IMG/VR virus record: IMGVR_UViG_3300007513_000003
Length of the DNA stretch: 64,000 nt
From: a virus
Taxonomy: Duplodnaviria; Caudoviricetes
Strand: one strand, 5' to 3'
Numbering within the stretch: the stretch's first letter is position 1; the number at the start of each line of letters is the position of its first letter. A model generated the notes under the pieces. The model was not told the origin of the DNA, ran no database searches, and saw only the letters and a list, made by a program, of their open reading frames with translations. The position numbers and the translations under genes are program-made. This document shows positions 797 through 6,879 of the stretch, piece by piece.

Positions 797-2467
797 TTAT
801 GTTGTTGGTGCTGGTTCTAACTCAGGTGCTTCGCCACCTTCTATAGGTGCTTCACCCTCTATAGGCGCTTCATCACCTTCCGGAAGTTCAGGTTCCTCTG
901 CCATAGACATATCAGAGTCTAATCCACCTGGTGTAATACCAACATTACGCATATCTGAACCATATACTTGGGATGCTTGATTGTTGCCTGTTTCCTCTTC
1001 CCACTTTTCTGTGTTTTCAATTAGTTCTTGCTCTGTTAGACCTAAGTAACGTGTTAGCAAGAAGCGTTTACTCATATATGGCAATTGTTCTAACTGCGTA
1101 AATGCAGAAATCTTTGTGTTATCCAACTCTGCTTGTCTATATGATGCAAAGTTCTGCGGCTCATTAAACTTAATTTCAAAAATACTATTGTCAATATTAA
1201 CACCACGTGTCTTTAAAAATAGTTTAAATTCTGTATCAACTGTACCAGAAATAATTGTTTGTAAACGTTTGCAGTATTCGTTGAATCTAAATTCTTGAAT
1301 TAATGCTGTGCCTACTCTACCATCATTATAAGCGGCGACACCTTCATCAGGTCCGGTTGGCAAATAACTTGCCGGAATACGCAATGCACGATATAATTTA
1401 TTTGTAAAATATCTTAAATCGTCAATTTGTCCTAGATTTTCACCTCCTGGTAATGTTTCGACTTTACTGCCTCTTCCTTCGCCCGTTTGTGGAAAGAAAT
1501 AATCTTCCATAATAGATAGTGGATTATATGTTGAATCCATCATTTTGGATCCACCACCTGTTGTAGTTGGAATTCTACGTTGGTGAATTTCATTCTTAAC
1601 ACGCTCAACAAAACCCATAGCCATGTGTGATGGCATATTACCTACGTCAATGTAAAATACACGGCGTTCCGGAGCACGTTGTACGCGGTAGATAATAATA
1701 GCATCTTCTAATAATTCTTTTTGTTTATATGTTTTAAAGATATTCTCTAAAATACTATTACCAAATGGCCAGGTGCCATCCATCTCTTCTGTTAAACTAA
1801 TATGAACAATATAATTAGCATCAATAGCAACGGCTTTTTTACCATATGTGTATTTGGAAGCATTTGCCATATTCTCTTGTGTTTGTGATCCTGTTCTACT
1901 CATTAGATTAGGAATAGTTGTACCACCTGTCTCCTTTTCTGTTGTTTGTAGAGTATCAAAATTAATTGCTAAATCACGAACAATATATTGTTCAATTTCT
2001 TTACCGGCACTTTCATCAACAACAATCTTTTCAACTTTGGCACAATCAACAAAGTGCCACTTTTGTGTTTCTGGATCACGAATAAAAAGTTGGTCACCGT
2101 ATTTTAGTGTGTTGCGGAAAAGTTTAAAAATTTTACGATCAAAACTTTGTAGATTATACCAGTGTTTTAATTGTGTATTTAAAATTTCCATTTCTGTTGC
2201 TGTCGCGTCATCATGGTAATGAACTTGGAATGCAATGCCTGATTCTGTATTTTGTTGTGTACAGAATTCTGCTAAAATATCAAGTGCTGAATTTACTTCA
2301 CTGTCTTGGTCCATTGCATCGTATTGAATATAACGCTCAATACGATTAGGATGCCCAGAGTAAACTTCAGGCAATACTGAACTATAATTTTTAAAGCCAA
2401 CGTCAGGAGTTCCATTTCTCATTGGAACTACATTGTTTGGTTGTGTGAAATATTTTTTCCAAGTCAT
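797..2467 (-). CDS. gp20: Portal vertex protein, T4 gp20 family
   Basis: Motifs YRVQRAPERRVFYIDVGNMP, EDYFFP, GSKVETLPGGENLGQIDDLRYFTNKLYRALRIPASYL and E-x-RFNEYCKRLQ match T4-type portals. The C-terminal tail is acidic with EAPIEG repeats. Confidence 0.95.
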   Translation of the reverse strand: MTWKKYFTQPNNVVPMRNGTPDVGFKNYSSVLPEVYSGHPNRIERYIQYDAMDQDSEVNSALDILAEFCTQQNTESGIAFQVHYHDDATATEMEILNTQLKHWYNLQSFDRKIFKLFRNTLKYGDQLFIRDPETQKWHFVDCAKVEKIVVDESAGKEIEQYIVRDLAINFDTLQTTEKETGGTTIPNLMSRTGSQTQENMANASKYTYGKKAVAIDANYIVHISLTEEMDGTWPFGNSILENIFKTYKQKELLEDAIIIYRVQRAPERRVFYIDVGNMPSHMAMGFVERVKNEIHQRRIPTTTGGGSKMMDSTYNPLSIMEDYFFPQTGEGRGSKVETLPGGENLGQIDDLRYFTNKLYRALRIPASYLPTGPDEGVAAYNDGRVGTALIQEFRFNEYCKRLQTIISGTVDTEFKLFLKTRGVNIDNSIFEIKFNEPQNFASYRQAELDNTKISAFTQLEQLPYMSKRFLLTRYLGLTEQELIENTEKWEEETGNNQASQVYGSDMRNVGITPGGLDSDMSMAEEPELPEGDEAPIEGEAPIEGGEAPELEPAPTT

Positions 2468-2543: not shown

Positions 2544-4856
2544 CTACCCGTATGTCGTCCCATCTTGCCCTGCTTCATTTGCTAATCCGTGCGGAGATCT
2601 TGCGTTCTTGTTTCCATTATCAATATTAACATTAACCTGATTATTTTTCTGTGCTTGCAATTGTTTTTCAGTAAGATCAACGAGTTTATCCAATTGTTGA
2701 GTTTGCTTTTTCACTTCTTGTAAGTTTTCATTAGCGGTATCTGACAAGCTTTTAGATGCTTCAGTTGCCCCAGTAGCAGATTCACCTGTTTGTGCTATGC
2801 CTGCCTCGGCCAAGGCTGATATCTTTGTGGAAAGTCCTGCATGGCGCGCATCTGCACTTGATGTTGCTACTTTTGGTTTTGCTACTGGTGTACCAGGTGG
2901 TGGAGTATTTGGTTTTACTACTGCTGTAGGTTTTGCTTCCGAAGTACCACCCAGCACATCCTTCCTTATGTCGACGCGATCTCCAGTCCCGCCAAACATT
3001 TCATGCATTGTGTCATACTGTTCTTGAATTAGATCTATAGATGTTTTCATAAAACCTGTAATTTTGTCACCTAATGTACCTGCCATTCTTGGAATAGTTC
3101 TGTAAGATACAAGTCCTTCGTCTTGTAGTTTTATTATCTCAGCTGAAAGTTCTTCATCAAACCCCGTTTTTTCTTTATAGGTTTTTAATTGTCCCTGGAC
3201 CCAATTGATCAGTCCATCATCAGCGTTAAAGATAGTATCCAAAAACAATTCCCTGGCGCCAACTGCTATCTCGTCTTTCAGAACTCTGATATCAGTTGTT
3301 AGTTGGGTAGCTGCATCACCAATCGTTCCTACGAGTTTCCCGTCGACAATTTCTGCGTCAATACCCATTGCTTGATCATAAAAATGTTCAAATGCTGTCG
3401 AAAAGTTTACTGATTCTGTATCAACTATCCCGGCATGTTTGGCATATGCGTCTTGAATTGCATTAAATTTTGTAGTGGTTGCCTGTGCAGCTTCGAACAA
3501 TGCTAACCCGATCGGTTGGCCAGCCGCGGCTAAAGGAGCAAAAGTATCTCTTGTTTTTTCTATGGCGTCTTCTAATTTGCCTAGACTTGCGTTAAAAATC
3601 TCGCCGGCGCCATCACCAGCAGATAACATATCTGAGGCTAGATCGTTATACATTTGTCCCATCGGAGTAGCCATCATCATTCTAGCCTCTTTACCTTTCG
3701 GAACAACACCTGCAACTCTGGCTTTAAAGATCTCAGCGGCCGCCGGGCCGCCTGTTTCCATTGCCTTCTTGAGCCCGTCTGTCATTGCAGCCTGTTGTTC
3801 TGGGCCCATGTTCATAATAGCCGCCTGGAATTGCGCGTCAGATGCCAATTTTTGTTGTTCTTTCGCTAGCCGATCTTTACTCTTACCAGTGAGTACTTCT
3901 AACTGTGATAATTGGTATATATAATCACCGGTCATATCTGCTTGCTCTTGAGCAGATAACGAACGAGTGCTATCAGCCAGAGAAGCATTATTCAGCATGG
4001 TTGCCGATAACTCTAATGCATCTTCTACATCCATACCCATCAATTCTATTGTGCGTCTAAACGACATTCCGGATGTTGTATGACGTCGGCCAACGTCTGA
4101 AAGTACGCCACCTAAAGTAACTAATCTTTCAGCACCTAGTTGTGCTGTTCCTCCAAACATAGACAATGTTTCAGAATTTCTTTTCATTAAAGCATTAAAT
4201 TCTGTTTGTGTCAAAGTTGTTGTTGTGATGGCCTTCGCATACGTTTCTAGACTTCTACCAAAAGGTATACCTGCTGTGGTTATCTCGTTTAGTCCATCTA
4301 AATATCCGCCGTACACTTCTTCAGCAATTCCGAGCGCCGCGCCGCCGGCGCCGCCCACAACAGAACCTACCATCGCACCGGCGCTGCCGAATCTAGCTCC
4401 CGCGGCACCGCCCAACCCAGCGCCGGCGGCCATAAAAGGAACCTTGGCAAGAATCGACTTAAAGACTCCCGCGATCGCAGACATAATACCACCTTGATCG
4501 TCATCCTTATCTTTGTCATCTCCATCTGAATCTGGCTTAGTTAGTTTTCCATCTTTAACAATTTTATCTATATTGCCCATCGCAATGACCATTGCTCCGG
4601 CGCTTGCGGAAAAGGTCATGCCGGCCTTGGTTATTTCTACAGCGGCACCGCCGAGAGATTTGGTCAATCCGTTTAATGCTTCTCCAAATGCCTCTGCACT
4701 ATCACCAGCATAGGATATTTGTTTTCCAGAAACCCTCGCAACTCGCGAAATGTAATTTAACTCTGTAGACGCACGATCCGCAGAGTCAGAGACACTTCTA
4801 AATAGCGCATCTATAGATCGTTTGGTTTCTCGTAAAATTGCGTCGTCGTCTGCCAT
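2544..4856 (-). CDS. Tape-measure-like protein (770 aa)
   Basis: Long, Ala/Gly-rich and apparently helical, with a Gly-zipper hydrophobic segment (GAGLGGAAGARFGSAGAMVGSVVGGAGGAALG). It is adjacent to a tail/baseplate chaperone gene and has TATAAATA upstream (4900-4907, minus). Confidence 0.65.
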   Translation of the reverse strand: MADDDAILRETKRSIDALFRSVSDSADRASTELNYISRVARVSGKQISYAGDSAEAFGEALNGLTKSLGGAAVEITKAGMTFSASAGAMVIAMGNIDKIVKDGKLTKPDSDGDDKDKDDDQGGIMSAIAGVFKSILAKVPFMAAGAGLGGAAGARFGSAGAMVGSVVGGAGGAALGIAEEVYGGYLDGLNEITTAGIPFGRSLETYAKAITTTTLTQTEFNALMKRNSETLSMFGGTAQLGAERLVTLGGVLSDVGRRHTTSGMSFRRTIELMGMDVEDALELSATMLNNASLADSTRSLSAQEQADMTGDYIYQLSQLEVLTGKSKDRLAKEQQKLASDAQFQAAIMNMGPEQQAAMTDGLKKAMETGGPAAAEIFKARVAGVVPKGKEARMMMATPMGQMYNDLASDMLSAGDGAGEIFNASLGKLEDAIEKTRDTFAPLAAAGQPIGLALFEAAQATTTKFNAIQDAYAKHAGIVDTESVNFSTAFEHFYDQAMGIDAEIVDGKLVGTIGDAATQLTTDIRVLKDEIAVGARELFLDTIFNADDGLINWVQGQLKTYKEKTGFDEELSAEIIKLQDEGLVSYRTIPRMAGTLGDKITGFMKTSIDLIQEQYDTMHEMFGGTGDRVDIRKDVLGGTSEAKPTAVVKPNTPPPGTPVAKPKVATSSADARHAGLSTKISALAEAGIAQTGESATGATEASKSLSDTANENLQEVKKQTQQLDKLVDLTEKQLQAQKNNQVNVNIDNGNKNARSPHGLANEAGQDGTTYG

Positions 4857-4884
4857 AATAATATGCGTATATTATAAAATAAGG

Positions 4885-4907
4885 TAAATATCGCTATATT
4901 ATTTATA
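4885..4907. promoter_or_regulatory. Divergent pair of T4-type late promoters: TAAATA on + at 4885-4890 and TATAAATA on - at 4900-4907
   Basis: Both motifs sit in the 73-bp gap between two divergent structural genes. A gp55 late sigma factor is encoded in the window. Confidence 0.6.
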
Positions 4908-4929
4908 CATCAAATTTTGAGGATTTCAA

Positions 4930-5769
4930 ATGAGTAGTTTATTAGAACAATATTATCGCCAACCTGAGATTTATATCTCATTACCTAACGAAGGTAAATT
5001 TTATCCTGCAGGATCTATAGAAATTTCCGAATCCGGCGAGATTCCTGTTTTTGCTATGACAGCCAAGGATGACATTGTACTTAAAACGCCTGATGCTTTG
5101 ATATCAGGTGAAGCAATTGCACAAGTTATAAAAAGTTGTGTTCCTGCTATTAAAGATCCATGGCAAGTACCTGCTACTGATATTGATTTCATTTTAGTAG
5201 CAATTCGAATTGCGTCTTATGGTAATGACATGGAATTGAATTTTTCATGTCCTAAATGTGAAGAAAAATTTGATTATCAAATAGGTTTAGAATATTATAT
5301 TAATAAACTAGGTGATATATCCTTTGAACCTGAACAAATCTTAATTCCTTATGGCCAAGTTAAAATACATATTAAACCATTAAATTATTTGGATTTGTCG
5401 TTAATTCAAAGACGCACATTCGAAGAACAACGTGCAATTGAGGCAGTGGGTTCAATGGAGGAAAAAACAGAAGAAGAAAAGCAAGAAATGTATAATGAAA
5501 TACTAAATACAATGACCGATATAAACATCAACGCTATTTCTTCAGGTGTTAAAGCAATTGAACTTCCAGATGGCACTATGGTTGATGATCAAGAAGAAAT
5601 TATTAATTTTGTTAATAATTCTAGTGTAAGATTATTCAAAAAAATTACAGGCGCTATTCAAGAAATTAAAGACAAAACAGTATTAGACCCTATTGATGTA
5701 AAATGCCCTGAATGTTCCCATGAGTTTACTAGTCCTATAATTTTTGATTACGCAAATTTTTTCGCCTAA
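4930..5769 (+). CDS. gp26: T4 gp26-like baseplate hub / tail assembly chaperone
   Basis: N-terminal PEIYISLPNEGKFYP, FAMTAKDDIVLKTPDALISGEA and DIDFILVAIRIASYG. Two CPxC motifs (CPKC, CPEC). Ends in NFFA. Confidence 0.75.
   Translation: MSSLLEQYYRQPEIYISLPNEGKFYPAGSIEISESGEIPVFAMTAKDDIVLKTPDALISGEAIAQVIKSCVPAIKDPWQVPATDIDFILVAIRIASYGNDMELNFSCPKCEEKFDYQIGLEYYINKLGDISFEPEQILIPYGQVKIHIKPLNYLDLSLIQRRTFEEQRAIEAVGSMEEKTEEEKQEMYNEILNTMTDININAISSGVKAIELPDGTMVDDQEEIINFVNNSSVRLFKKITGAIQEIKDKTVLDPIDVKCPECSHEFTSPIIFDYANFFA
5754..5763 (+). other. Candidate -1 ribosomal frameshift site: overlapping A AAT TTT and T TTT TTC heptamers in the gp26 frame
   Basis: Both heptamers fit X XXY YYZ in the zero frame, one to two codons before the gp26 stop. 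The -1 frame is open from 5748 to 5993. Confidence 0.65.
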
Positions 5770-5993
5770 GGCTTCTATCATTAAAATACGAAGAAATATT
5801 AGAGTTAATTACTAATTACGAAAATCAGGTAGAAGCCATAAAAAAAGAAATATACAGTTTTGCATGGCATATGCGAGGTGGATTTACTATCAATGAGATG
5901 TTCAACACTTCCGCAAAGGAAAGAAAAGTACTTTCTGACATTATTGAAGAACATATGAAAACAACAAAACAATCAGGTTTACCATATTTCTAA
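5763..5993 (+). CDS. -1-frame extension of gp26 (76 codons; resembles gp51 or the T part of a G/GT chaperone)
   Basis: Reads RLRLLSLKYEEILELITNYENQVEAIKKEIYSFAWHMRGGFTINEMFNTSAKERKVLSDIIEEHMKTTKQSGLPYF*. There is no ATG/GTG/TTG until 5871, and that ATG has no evident SD. Not in the ORF track. Confidence 0.65.
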   Translation, partial: RLRLLSLKYEEILELITNYENQVEAIKKEIYSFAWHMRGGFTINEMFNTSAKERKVLSDIIEEHMKTTKQSGLPYF

Positions 5994-6109
5994 TGGAACA
6001 AGAGAACGAAAAAAAGCAGAATGAAGGCTTAGGATTACTTGGGGCAATATTCAGTCTATTCATCGGCTACAAAGCAGGCAAGAAAGCTGGTAAATGGCCC
6101 TGCATTTAA
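5993..6109 (+). CDS. Micro membrane protein (38 aa)
   Basis: MEQENEKKQNEGLGLLGAIFSLFIGYKAGKKAGKWPCI*. The ATG overlaps the upstream TAA (TAATG). One hydrophobic segment followed by a basic tail. Confidence 0.55.
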   Translation: MEQENEKKQNEGLGLLGAIFSLFIGYKAGKKAGKWPCI

Positions 6110-6131
6110 ATAATTTAACGTAAGTATTAAT

Positions 6132-6152
6132 ATACCAGGCGTCGCCTGGTGT
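6132..6152. terminator. GC-rich hairpin between convergent genes; probable terminator
   Basis: ACCAGGC-GTC-GCCTGGT forms a 7-bp stem, extendable to 9 bp. No clear U tract. Confidence 0.4.
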
Positions 6153-6163
6153 CGGATTAAAAA

Positions 6164-6277
6164 CTAAATGACTTTTATATGCATTTTAGTTTTTTTGCCT
6201 ACGTTGTAACCTATTCCAAATGATATTGCTATCACTGTACAAATGGCTAGTATATGCCAGATTAAAAATGAGCTCAT
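6164..6277 (-). CDS. Micro membrane protein (37 aa)
   Basis: MSSFLIWHILAICTVIAISFGIGYNVGKKTKMHIKVI*, with a strong SD (AAGGAG) upstream. Confidence 0.7.
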   Translation of the reverse strand: MSSFLIWHILAICTVIAISFGIGYNVGKKTKMHIKVI

Positions 6278-6309: not shown

Positions 6310-6879
6310 TTACTCGACATATTTTTTAAATTCTTCTGGAACTTCATCAAATCGCCAAAGTGTAACCCATTCTAAATATTCTTTAGGCCAATTTTTATAA
6401 TAGTTTGTATTTTTTGCCAATTGCACTGATGCGTTATTTAATACATCTAATCGTGCCATTAACACTAATGCAGATTTGCCAAAATTAAACATTAAATCAC
6501 CAATTTGTTCTATATGTCCCGGATGGTCATCAAGTATCGCTAAATTTAATGGATTTGCATATTCATTAATTTTTTCTGAAATGTCTTGATATTCTTCAAC
6601 CGTATACCTGTCAGTGGGTGTTATAACCGCTAATACTTCAACATTACCACGGTCATCACGATCTGTCCAGTTGTCAACATATTCTTTTAATTTTTCTAAA
6701 AGATTGTCATTGACTACTTTTATTCGTACTGTGTCATTTTCCAATGCAGGGGGTGCATATGGACATACTGGTAAGTTATCTAACTCGGGAAATTCTTTGA
6801 CAATAAAAGTTCTAATCCAATGTTTTAGTTCTTCTATTTTTTCTACGGCTTCTGCCGGGGTCCAATCGGTTTCGTTCAT
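6310..6879 (-). CDS. Hypothetical protein, DUF1415-like
   Basis: Good SD (AGGAGG). The segment WIRTFIV...LPVCPYAPPAL and a D-D-H-P segment recall DUF1415. The family call is tentative. Confidence 0.7.
   Translation of the reverse strand: MNETDWTPAEAVEKIEELKHWIRTFIVKEFPELDNLPVCPYAPPALENDTVRIKVVNDNLLEKLKEYVDNWTDRDDRGNVEVLAVITPTDRYTVEEYQDISEKINEYANPLNLAILDDHPGHIEQIGDLMFNFGKSALVLMARLDVLNNASVQLAKNTNYYKNWPKEYLEWVTLWRFDEVPEEFKKYVE

Follow-up and report, generated by a model that had tools for sequence, protein, structure and literature searches.

A stretch of 64,000 nucleotides (the window) from IMG/VR virus record IMGVR_UViG_3300007513_000003 (Duplodnaviria; Caudoviricetes) carries, at the end of a gene related to T4 genes 26 and 51, a real, conserved and unannotated -1 recoding site for two forms of one protein, a short one like gp26 and a long one like gp51. 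The finding is carried by direct observations: the anatomy of the site, its conservation, the existence of natural in-frame long forms, and relatives that have two genes in place of one. The record to which the window belongs spans 124 kb, an estimated 35% of the full genome by CheckV, and therefore comes from a jumbo phage; its T4-type portal gene identifies it as a T4-related myovirus. Near-identical contigs are present in marine and seawater metagenome runs. A blastn search of positions 4800-6200 against 50,697 phage records gave no match. The elements of the site are as follows.

4930-5769, plus strand: gp26-like short-form gene, 279 residues, with a PF12322 (T4_baseplate) domain and two CxxC pairs; zero-frame TAA at 5767-5769.
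5757-5763, plus strand: slippery heptamer T_TTT_TTC, in phase, the proposed -1 slip site, one codon 5' of the zero-frame stop.
5763-5993, plus strand: -1 frame extension, 76 codons (RLRLLSLKYEEI...GLPYF) and a TAA stop, the predicted C-terminal helical domain of a 354-residue long form.

The 279-residue protein (P0001) matches Pfam family PF12322 with 67.8 bits (cut-off 24.5; E = 1.5e-18), residues 47-279 aligning with profile positions 34-219, and a PF12322 search of the genome record gives 65.3 bits for the same gene. P0001 also matches phrog_150 ('baseplate hub', E = 2.1e-19). These matches place the gene in the T4 gp26/gp51 family.

Two products of this gene, made by -1 ribosomal slippage, are in our judgement highly probable. 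The gene would encode the 279-residue short form of a gp26/gp51-family hub and tail assembly chaperone. A ribosome with phenylalanine transfer RNA on TTT in the peptidyl (P) site and on TTC in the aminoacyl (A) site (5758-5763) would slip back one base onto T TTT TT, read CGC CTA AGG... in the -1 frame, bypass the TAA at 5767 and stop at 5991-5993. Slippage in a fraction of passages would yield the 354-residue long form, which has an extra 76-residue helical C-terminal domain. Both forms would be needed, presumably in a fixed ratio, as are G and GT of lambda, and in T4 and some environmental relatives the same need would be met by separate short (gp26) and long (gp51) genes. By analogy, the N-domain would work with the tape-measure-like protein encoded next to it and the C-domain would recruit another tail or hub component. 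Both the ribosomal nature of the slip and its efficiency we infer.

Anatomy of the site

The 3' end of the gp26-like gene reads ...GAT TAC GCA AAT TTT TTC GCC TAA and contains two overlapping in-phase heptamers, A_AAT_TTT (5754-5760) and T_TTT_TTC (5757-5763). The -1 frame, closed by a TGA at 5745-5747, is open from 5748 to 5990 and ends in a TAA at 5991-5993; the first ATG, GTG or TTG in this frame is the ATG at 5871, which leaves 41 codons without a start. A simultaneous -1 slip on T_TTT_TTC would join 278 zero-frame residues to 76 residues of the -1 frame (354 in all) with the junction ...YANFF-RLRLL. A first-pass annotation, made from the letters alone, had described the two overlapping X XXY YYZ heptamers, the open frame from the TGA at 5745 to 5993 with its 41 start-less codons, and a shift product of 278 + 76, about 354 residues; the sequence and its translation agree on every point. 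Searched on its own, the -1 open reading frame (ORF) has no meaningful match in Pfam, PHROGs or NCBIfam.

The upstream heptamer, A_AAT_TTT at 5754, was considered as part of the signal and rejected, as it is not kept in relatives, where CAT, AGT, GAT, CGT or ACT stands before the run. The same annotation had given an indel error in the T6 run as its main alternative. Logan contigs from the run of another sample span 5482-6100 with 0 differences and 0 gaps. Their identity with the window, together with the recurrence of the arrangement in 55 other loci, shows that the T run did not arise from an assembly slip, and the proposed indel falls away. In one run a contig starts at 5756, which is no more than a contig end. 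The one RNA library contig that overlaps the gene does so over 5300-5382 only, away from the slip site.

Conservation of the heptamer in single-gene relatives

With the gp26-like protein as query, tblastn finds 98 phage records, all of jumbo myoviruses, in the PA5oct, RaK2, 121Q, CBB/GAP32, 7t3, XbC2, fHe-Yen9, SCTP-2 and Atu_ph07 groups; with the -1 peptide as query it finds Sinorhizobium phage Phosso and Agrobacterium phage Atu_ph07. The set of single-gene loci compared here numbers 56 (10 cultured jumbo phages, 45 IMG/VR contigs and the window) and ranges over marine and other environmental contigs as well as cultured phages, the hosts of the latter being Pseudomonas, Klebsiella, Escherichia, Salmonella, Pectobacterium, Xanthomonas, Yersinia, Agrobacterium, Sinorhizobium and Salicola.

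In-phase T_TTT_TTC is found in 56/56 loci, at protein identities of 20-73%, so the conservation of heptamer and -1 phase that had been suggested as a check on the site is complete among these relatives. The 10 cultured phages are 20-34% identical to the window; in 10/10 the heptamer is in phase, 1-11 codons before the zero-frame stop, and the -1 frame opens just before it, continues as FFR/Q-x-x-L-L/V/F and runs for 70-77 codons. The IMG/VR loci (32-73% identity) have the heptamer and its phase in 45/45, with an extension of 75-77 codons.

In every one of the 56 loci the run has exactly six T (T6) before a C and is never longer. The codon 5' of it is AAT, GAT, ACT, CAT, AGT or CGT, which specify six amino acids and always have T as the third base. 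TTC is the minor Phe codon of these genes (96 against 235 TTT), yet it is always the second Phe codon, and its C doubles as the first base of the -1 frame codon for an invariant Arg (or Gln). From a gene's own codon usage a Y-ending codon with T, followed by TTT and then TTC, is expected in 4-20% of cases; it is observed in 32/32 non-identical sequences. The product of the codon-usage chances over these 32 sequences is 10^-29.7, a significance that is overstated since the sequences are related. Selection acts on the nucleotides of the heptamer, to judge from the alignment, because six different preceding codons all end in T and the minor TTC is always second.

The -1 frame opens 0-39 codons before the heptamer (0-11 in most loci), and the conserved -1 peptide begins exactly at the heptamer with FFR-x-x-L-L and extends for 70-77 codons. 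It is under clear purifying selection. The zero-frame tail 3' of the heptamer has a length of 1 to 11 codons and is without conservation.

Natural long forms and two-gene lineages

A profile of the -1 domain was searched against 1.84 billion representative proteins and gave 503 matches at E<=1e-3. Among the matches listed are at least 20 natural in-frame long proteins of 319-351 residues that have the same domain at the extreme C-terminus (E down to 2e-22). Their junction reads ..LDxSxxFRxKLI.., and a PF12322 domain precedes the C-domain in 8/8 long forms scanned. Genomic context was looked up for six long genes. Four of them come immediately after a short PF12322 gene (281-297 residues), in the order portal, tape-measure-like gene (minus strand), short gene (plus strand), long gene (plus strand). 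The fifth follows a gene for 330 residues that has no recorded Pfam match and has a similar C-terminus; the sixth is on a 1.3-kb contig on which the upstream gene is cut to 30 residues, again with a similar C-terminus. Some lineages, as read from these gene arrangements, thus make the short and the long form from two genes.

The uncultured two-gene relatives (P0026/L064, P0023/L065, P0040/L080 and P0117/L081) share with the window the synteny, the family of the N-domain and the C-terminal domain (E = 1e-13 to 2e-22). They differ in having two tandem genes, so that recoding is unneeded, where the window has one, and their short genes mostly lack the heptamer; those of L064 and L065 lack the CxxC pairs. 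The short genes of two-gene lineages end SNFMS*, ADFFQKK* (GAC TTC TTT), SEFINQ..*, SSFMPSGL* or SNFLPE..*. The heptamer is kept in 1/7 two-gene lineages, T4 included, the single case being TCT TTT TTC, against 56/56 one-gene loci, as predicted for a functional slip site.

In a tree of the N-domain the four environmental short genes form one clade (100/100) amid the genes that would frameshift, and the long genes fall outside them. The tree is unrooted and T4 gp26 and gp51 are on very long branches; no order of events is claimed from it.

Several further features of these lineages were observed. The TCT TTT TTC just mentioned is in the short paralogue of L065 (1680-1704), where the -1 frame ends after one codon (CAA TGA), and it may be a relic slip site. 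In both L064 and L065 the short form has lost both CxxC pairs and the long form retains them; the zinc-ribbon-like element may be relevant only to the long form in these lineages. The context of P0026 (GCA_015689235.1) includes a T4-type portal gene with an intein, in which PF14890 lies between two PF07230 halves of a 1015-residue product.

RNA structure downstream of the heptamer

No strong local hairpin follows the site in the window, as the first-pass annotation had noted. The fold analysis adds one element.

5770-5837, plus strand: possible long-range stem of 10 bp, 5770-5779 (GGCUUCUAUC) pairing with 5828-5837 (GGUAGAAGCC), 6 nt after the heptamer.

This stem is present in the predicted minimum-energy fold both for the window and for L012, its closest relative, in which two changes are paired via G-U. 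Its energy is ordinary (z = -1.5, 29th percentile of windows from the same gene), and its role as a stimulator is uncertain. RNAalifold found no common structure in 24 downstream regions. Single-sequence folds contain stems of 7-12 bp that start 3-7 nt after the heptamer in many lineages; these stems are built from differing sequences, for example GGAUCU/AGAUCC or GGCUUCU/AGAAGCU. Compared with other windows from the same gene, the 45 nt 3' of the heptamer gain on average 4.5 kcal/mol in stability (Wilcoxon p = 1e-4, on related sequences), and this downstream fold is in the lowest decile of its own gene in 16/32 sequences. Proximity of the zero-frame stop (1-4 codons in most loci) may further favour the slip.

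Fold and function of the protein

The AlphaFold2 model of the N-domain protein of the window has a mean pLDDT (predicted local distance difference test) of 89, and that of the natural long form P0026 has 90.4, its C-domain consisting of four helices (pLDDT 83-94). Foldseek returned nothing for the N-domain model against the PDB at E<=0.001, a wide VIA-align search returned only generic helical hairpins (Z<=8.2) and no tail assembly chaperone, and phmmer gave no match of the N-domain to PDB sequences. These nulls do not show a new fold. Matches in BFVD are solely to other gp26/gp51-like 'baseplate hub' proteins, from many myovirus groups. A search of the 124-kb record for PF06841 (tail tube gp19) gave no match, and neither did the same search of control genomes, so that this negative carries no weight.

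PMC3004832 lists gp26 and gp51 of T4 among hub assembly chaperones and describes gp51 as needed for assembly and absent from the particle. CBB_250, the gp26-like homologue of phage CBB, is not in the mass-spectrometry table of the CBB virion, whereas CBB_251, the homologue of the neighbouring 770-residue protein, is there as an abundant virion protein with 29 peptides (PMC5259590); the outcome for CBB_250 fits a non-structural chaperone. By analogy with T4, we infer a chaperone role for the window protein as well.

Comparison with T4 gp26/gp51

T4 gp26 (1-206) and gp51 (1-201) both match PF12322 over their whole length, and gp51 has about 48 extra C-terminal residues. T4 has two copies of PF12322; the complete genomes of PA5oct, RaK2, Atu_ph07 and CBB have one each, as does the 124-kb record. 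The family and the outcome are the same in T4 as in the window, a short form (gp26, 208 residues) and a long form with a C-terminal tail (gp51, 249 residues), and T4 gp26 ends three residues past its Phe-Phe like the short forms here. The two systems are both linked to the tape-measure and hub gene cluster. They differ in that T4 has two divergent genes and TTC TTT, whereas the window has one gene with a predicted -1 slip; the N-domain of the window is some 70 residues longer than that of T4 and its tail, of 76 residues, exceeds that of T4 (about 48).

Gene 26 (minus strand) and gene 51 (plus strand) of T4 are divergent neighbours, gene 51 being followed by 27, 28 and 29 (tape measure), and gene 26 ends GAG TTC TTT GAG TTA CTA TAA without a slippery site. 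The notion of a gp26/gp51-type pair put forward by the first-pass annotation holds for the architecture and needs correction as to the arrangement: the T4 genes are divergent and not tandem. At the level of sequence architecture the two forms of the window gene are equivalent to the T4 gp26/gp51 pair.

The tail of T4 gp51 (FKLLVNPDEI...MIPAERGFVLKLIEK) resembles the -1 domain by eye, the pattern FKLLVNPDEI...PAER...LIEK in T4 corresponding to FFRLRLL..YEEI...KER...IIEE in the window. Aligned by hhalign to the T4 gp51 tail alone, the -1 domain gives E = 0.068; aligned to a tail profile of 13 gp51-family sequences it gives P = 0.0011, a value reached by 1/200 column shuffles. A hidden Markov model of 118 C-domains was not significant against T4 gp51 (rank 12 of 2000 shuffles), and in an hhalign comparison of the gp51 family with the long-form family the N-terminal part alone aligned. 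The -1 domain is thus strongly homologous to the tails of the natural long forms (E down to 2e-22), while its homology to the tail of T4 gp51 is probable, if weakly supported by these comparisons.

At the T4 gene 26/25 junction (L011, 2801-2805) gene 25 starts by a TAATG overlap on the gene 26 stop, in the -1 frame. This looks like ordinary coupling, because gene 26 has no slippery site (TTC TTT).

Comparison with lambda G/GT

A conserved -1 frameshift in long-tailed phages' genes for tail assembly chaperones, that of lambda gpG/gpGT, was reportedly described by Xu, Hendrix and Duda in 2004 (Mol Cell 16:11), and the E/E+E' frameshift of P2 takes place at T_TTT_TTG. In lambda as in the window, a short and a long protein would share the N-terminus, the -1 slip would fall on X_XXY_YYZ close to where the upstream ORF ends, the extension is start-less, the gene adjoins the tape-measure gene, and phase and site are conserved despite sequence divergence. 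Unlike the lambda gene, which lies directly upstream of the tape-measure gene in the same orientation, the window gene is divergent from its tape-measure-like neighbour, and this is so in all relatives. The window protein is also much larger than lambda-type chaperones, has a zinc-ribbon-like CxxC...CxxC element and has no detectable similarity in sequence or fold to tail assembly chaperones of solved structure, for example HK97 gp13 of the HK97 gp13/YqbN spiral family. The first-pass annotation had called the gene a G/GT equivalent that lies next to a tape-measure-like gene. It is indeed adjacent to that gene, although the neighbour is divergent and not downstream as in lambda; the equivalence stands, as an analogy, for expression logic and genomic neighbourhood and does not extend to the protein family.

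Alternative explanations

Several points weigh against the two-product model. The fold analysis finds no significant downstream stimulator at the window site, and no upstream Shine-Dalgarno-like element is visible there. The chaperone function rests on T4 genetics and analogy, and the fold matches no solved tail assembly chaperone. A trans-frame protein of this phage or of any relative was not found in the literature examined. Ribosomal slippage and insertion of a U give the same protein and are indistinguishable from sequence, and in Phosso and Atu_ph07 coupled re-initiation could operate through an ATGA overlap.

We regard transcriptional slippage, in which RNA polymerase adds one U in the U6 run so that a subset of messenger RNAs encodes the 354 residues in-frame, as improbable. 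In its favour, conservation falls on a homopolymer run, and an extra U would yield just the protein (..NFFRLRLL..) expected from a ribosomal slip. Bacterial RNA polymerases, however, usually slip productively only on runs of 7-9 or more, and the invariant T6 plus C is shorter; moreover, the stable stem 3-7 nt downstream in many lineages has the classic geometry of a ribosomal -1 stimulator.

Even less probable is a separate small gene that would be translated unfused, either through re-initiation or coupling once the gp26 stop is reached or by a start at the internal ATG (5871). A -1-frame ATG that overlaps the stop (ATGA) does exist in Phosso and Atu_ph07, and most GenBank records annotate a separate small ORF. 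In the window, CTA takes the place of that ATG, and no ATG, GTG or TTG follows for 41 codons. A conserved independent start codon, which had been proposed as a check, is not found among the relatives: the position of the first ATG, GTG or TTG of the -1 frame ranges from 20 codons 5' to 36 codons 3' of the heptamer, although the peptide is conserved from the heptamer onward, and several loci have a -1 frame stop directly 5' of the heptamer. Small database representatives tell the same story. Among the 150 matches listed of the 503, 129 are small (<=110 residues, most 40-102) and begin at profile positions 1 to 39, a scatter which implies that gene callers took the nearest start. In GenBank the small ORF is present with differing starts in 8 isolates and omitted in PA5oct and RaK2, and a joined coding sequence annotated for a frameshift is found in 0/10 records checked. 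A separate gene would also leave unexplained the invariance of TTTTTTC and its loss in two-gene lineages, and in natural in-frame fusions the domain meets PF12322 at the same place.

An indel introduced into the T run by sequencing or assembly, or decay of the gene, so that the truth would be a single ORF of 354 residues or a junk tail, deserves almost no credence: homopolymer runs are error-prone and single-ORF long forms exist in other lineages, but the arrangement recurs in 56 loci from independent isolates and metagenomes of different groups with zero-frame stops at differing distances, the contig of an independent sample is identical across the site, and the -1 domain is under purifying selection.

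Neighbouring genes

The surroundings of the gp26-like gene contain the following features.

797-2467, minus strand: T4-type portal protein gp20 (PF07230, E = 1.3e-107).
2544-4856, minus strand: tape-measure-like gene, 770 residues, divergent neighbour of the putative chaperone gene; the synteny is kept in all annotated relatives.
5993-6109, plus strand: 38-codon ORF (MEQENEKKQNEGLGLLGAIFSLFIGYKAGKKAGKWPCI) with a hydrophobic middle, its ATG overlapping the -1 frame stop (TAATG).

The 770-residue protein is called tape-measure-like by its position, its Gly/Ala-rich hydrophobic stretches and the annotation of relatives only; its RaK2 homologue is annotated as similar to tape measure protein. It has no family match in Pfam, PHROGs or NCBIfam searches and no similarity to T4 gp29 by BLASTP.

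In L012 and L032 the TAATG overlap on the -1 stop starts an ORF of 168-180 residues with a conserved ..LGN.P.CPYA.. motif; the 38-codon ORF of the window is, on this sequence comparison, probably the remnant of a longer gene that has been truncated or replaced. An inverted repeat, CCAGGCG-T-CGCCTGG, at 6133-6152 lies between the plus-strand unit and a convergent minus-strand gene (6310-6879) and is probably a terminator. In L003, L005, L008 and L026 a GC-rich hairpin and a T run directly follow the stop of the -1 ORF.

Relation to published work and significance

A passage of PMC10885494 that describes Vladimirov et al. (2022; Virology 566:9) states that some T4-like phages have one short and one longer fused gene instead of frameshifting, and a statement in PMC12846349 that cites the same work mentions poly-T signals for a -1 slip within the TAC-N genes that T4-like phages carry. 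Because both citing statements agree with the independent results obtained here, this kind of system has very probably been published already for T4-like phages. No open paper was found that reports a slip in the gp26/gp51 family of the jumbo-phage clade, Vladimirov et al. (2022) being known through these citing papers only. The gain is one of confirmation and extension, not discovery.

As a tentative idea, which we hold to be less probable than its negation, a slip on T_TTT_TTC could be the original two-form route of the gp26/gp51 family, replaced more than once by short and long gene pairs (in T4 and in the environmental clade), the site then decaying. If this were true, T4, long quoted as lacking the universal tail-chaperone frameshift, would be a derived case, and PA5oct, RaK2, 121Q, CBB and Atu_ph07 would carry an unrecognised essential recoding event.

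For annotation, the recoded gene, which would be essential, is missing or mis-annotated in jumbo-phage records: in 10/10 checked, the downstream frame is either left out or entered as a 'hypothetical protein' whose start is arbitrary. Annotation pipelines could call the frameshift by the invariant T_TTT_TTC followed by CGN. One-gene and two-gene lineages together would provide a natural experiment on the importance of the ratio of the forms. The finding would extend to T4-related and jumbo myoviruses the general rule of long-tailed phages by which one start site serves for both a short and a long assembly chaperone, and it would account for the two paralogous hub chaperone genes of T4.

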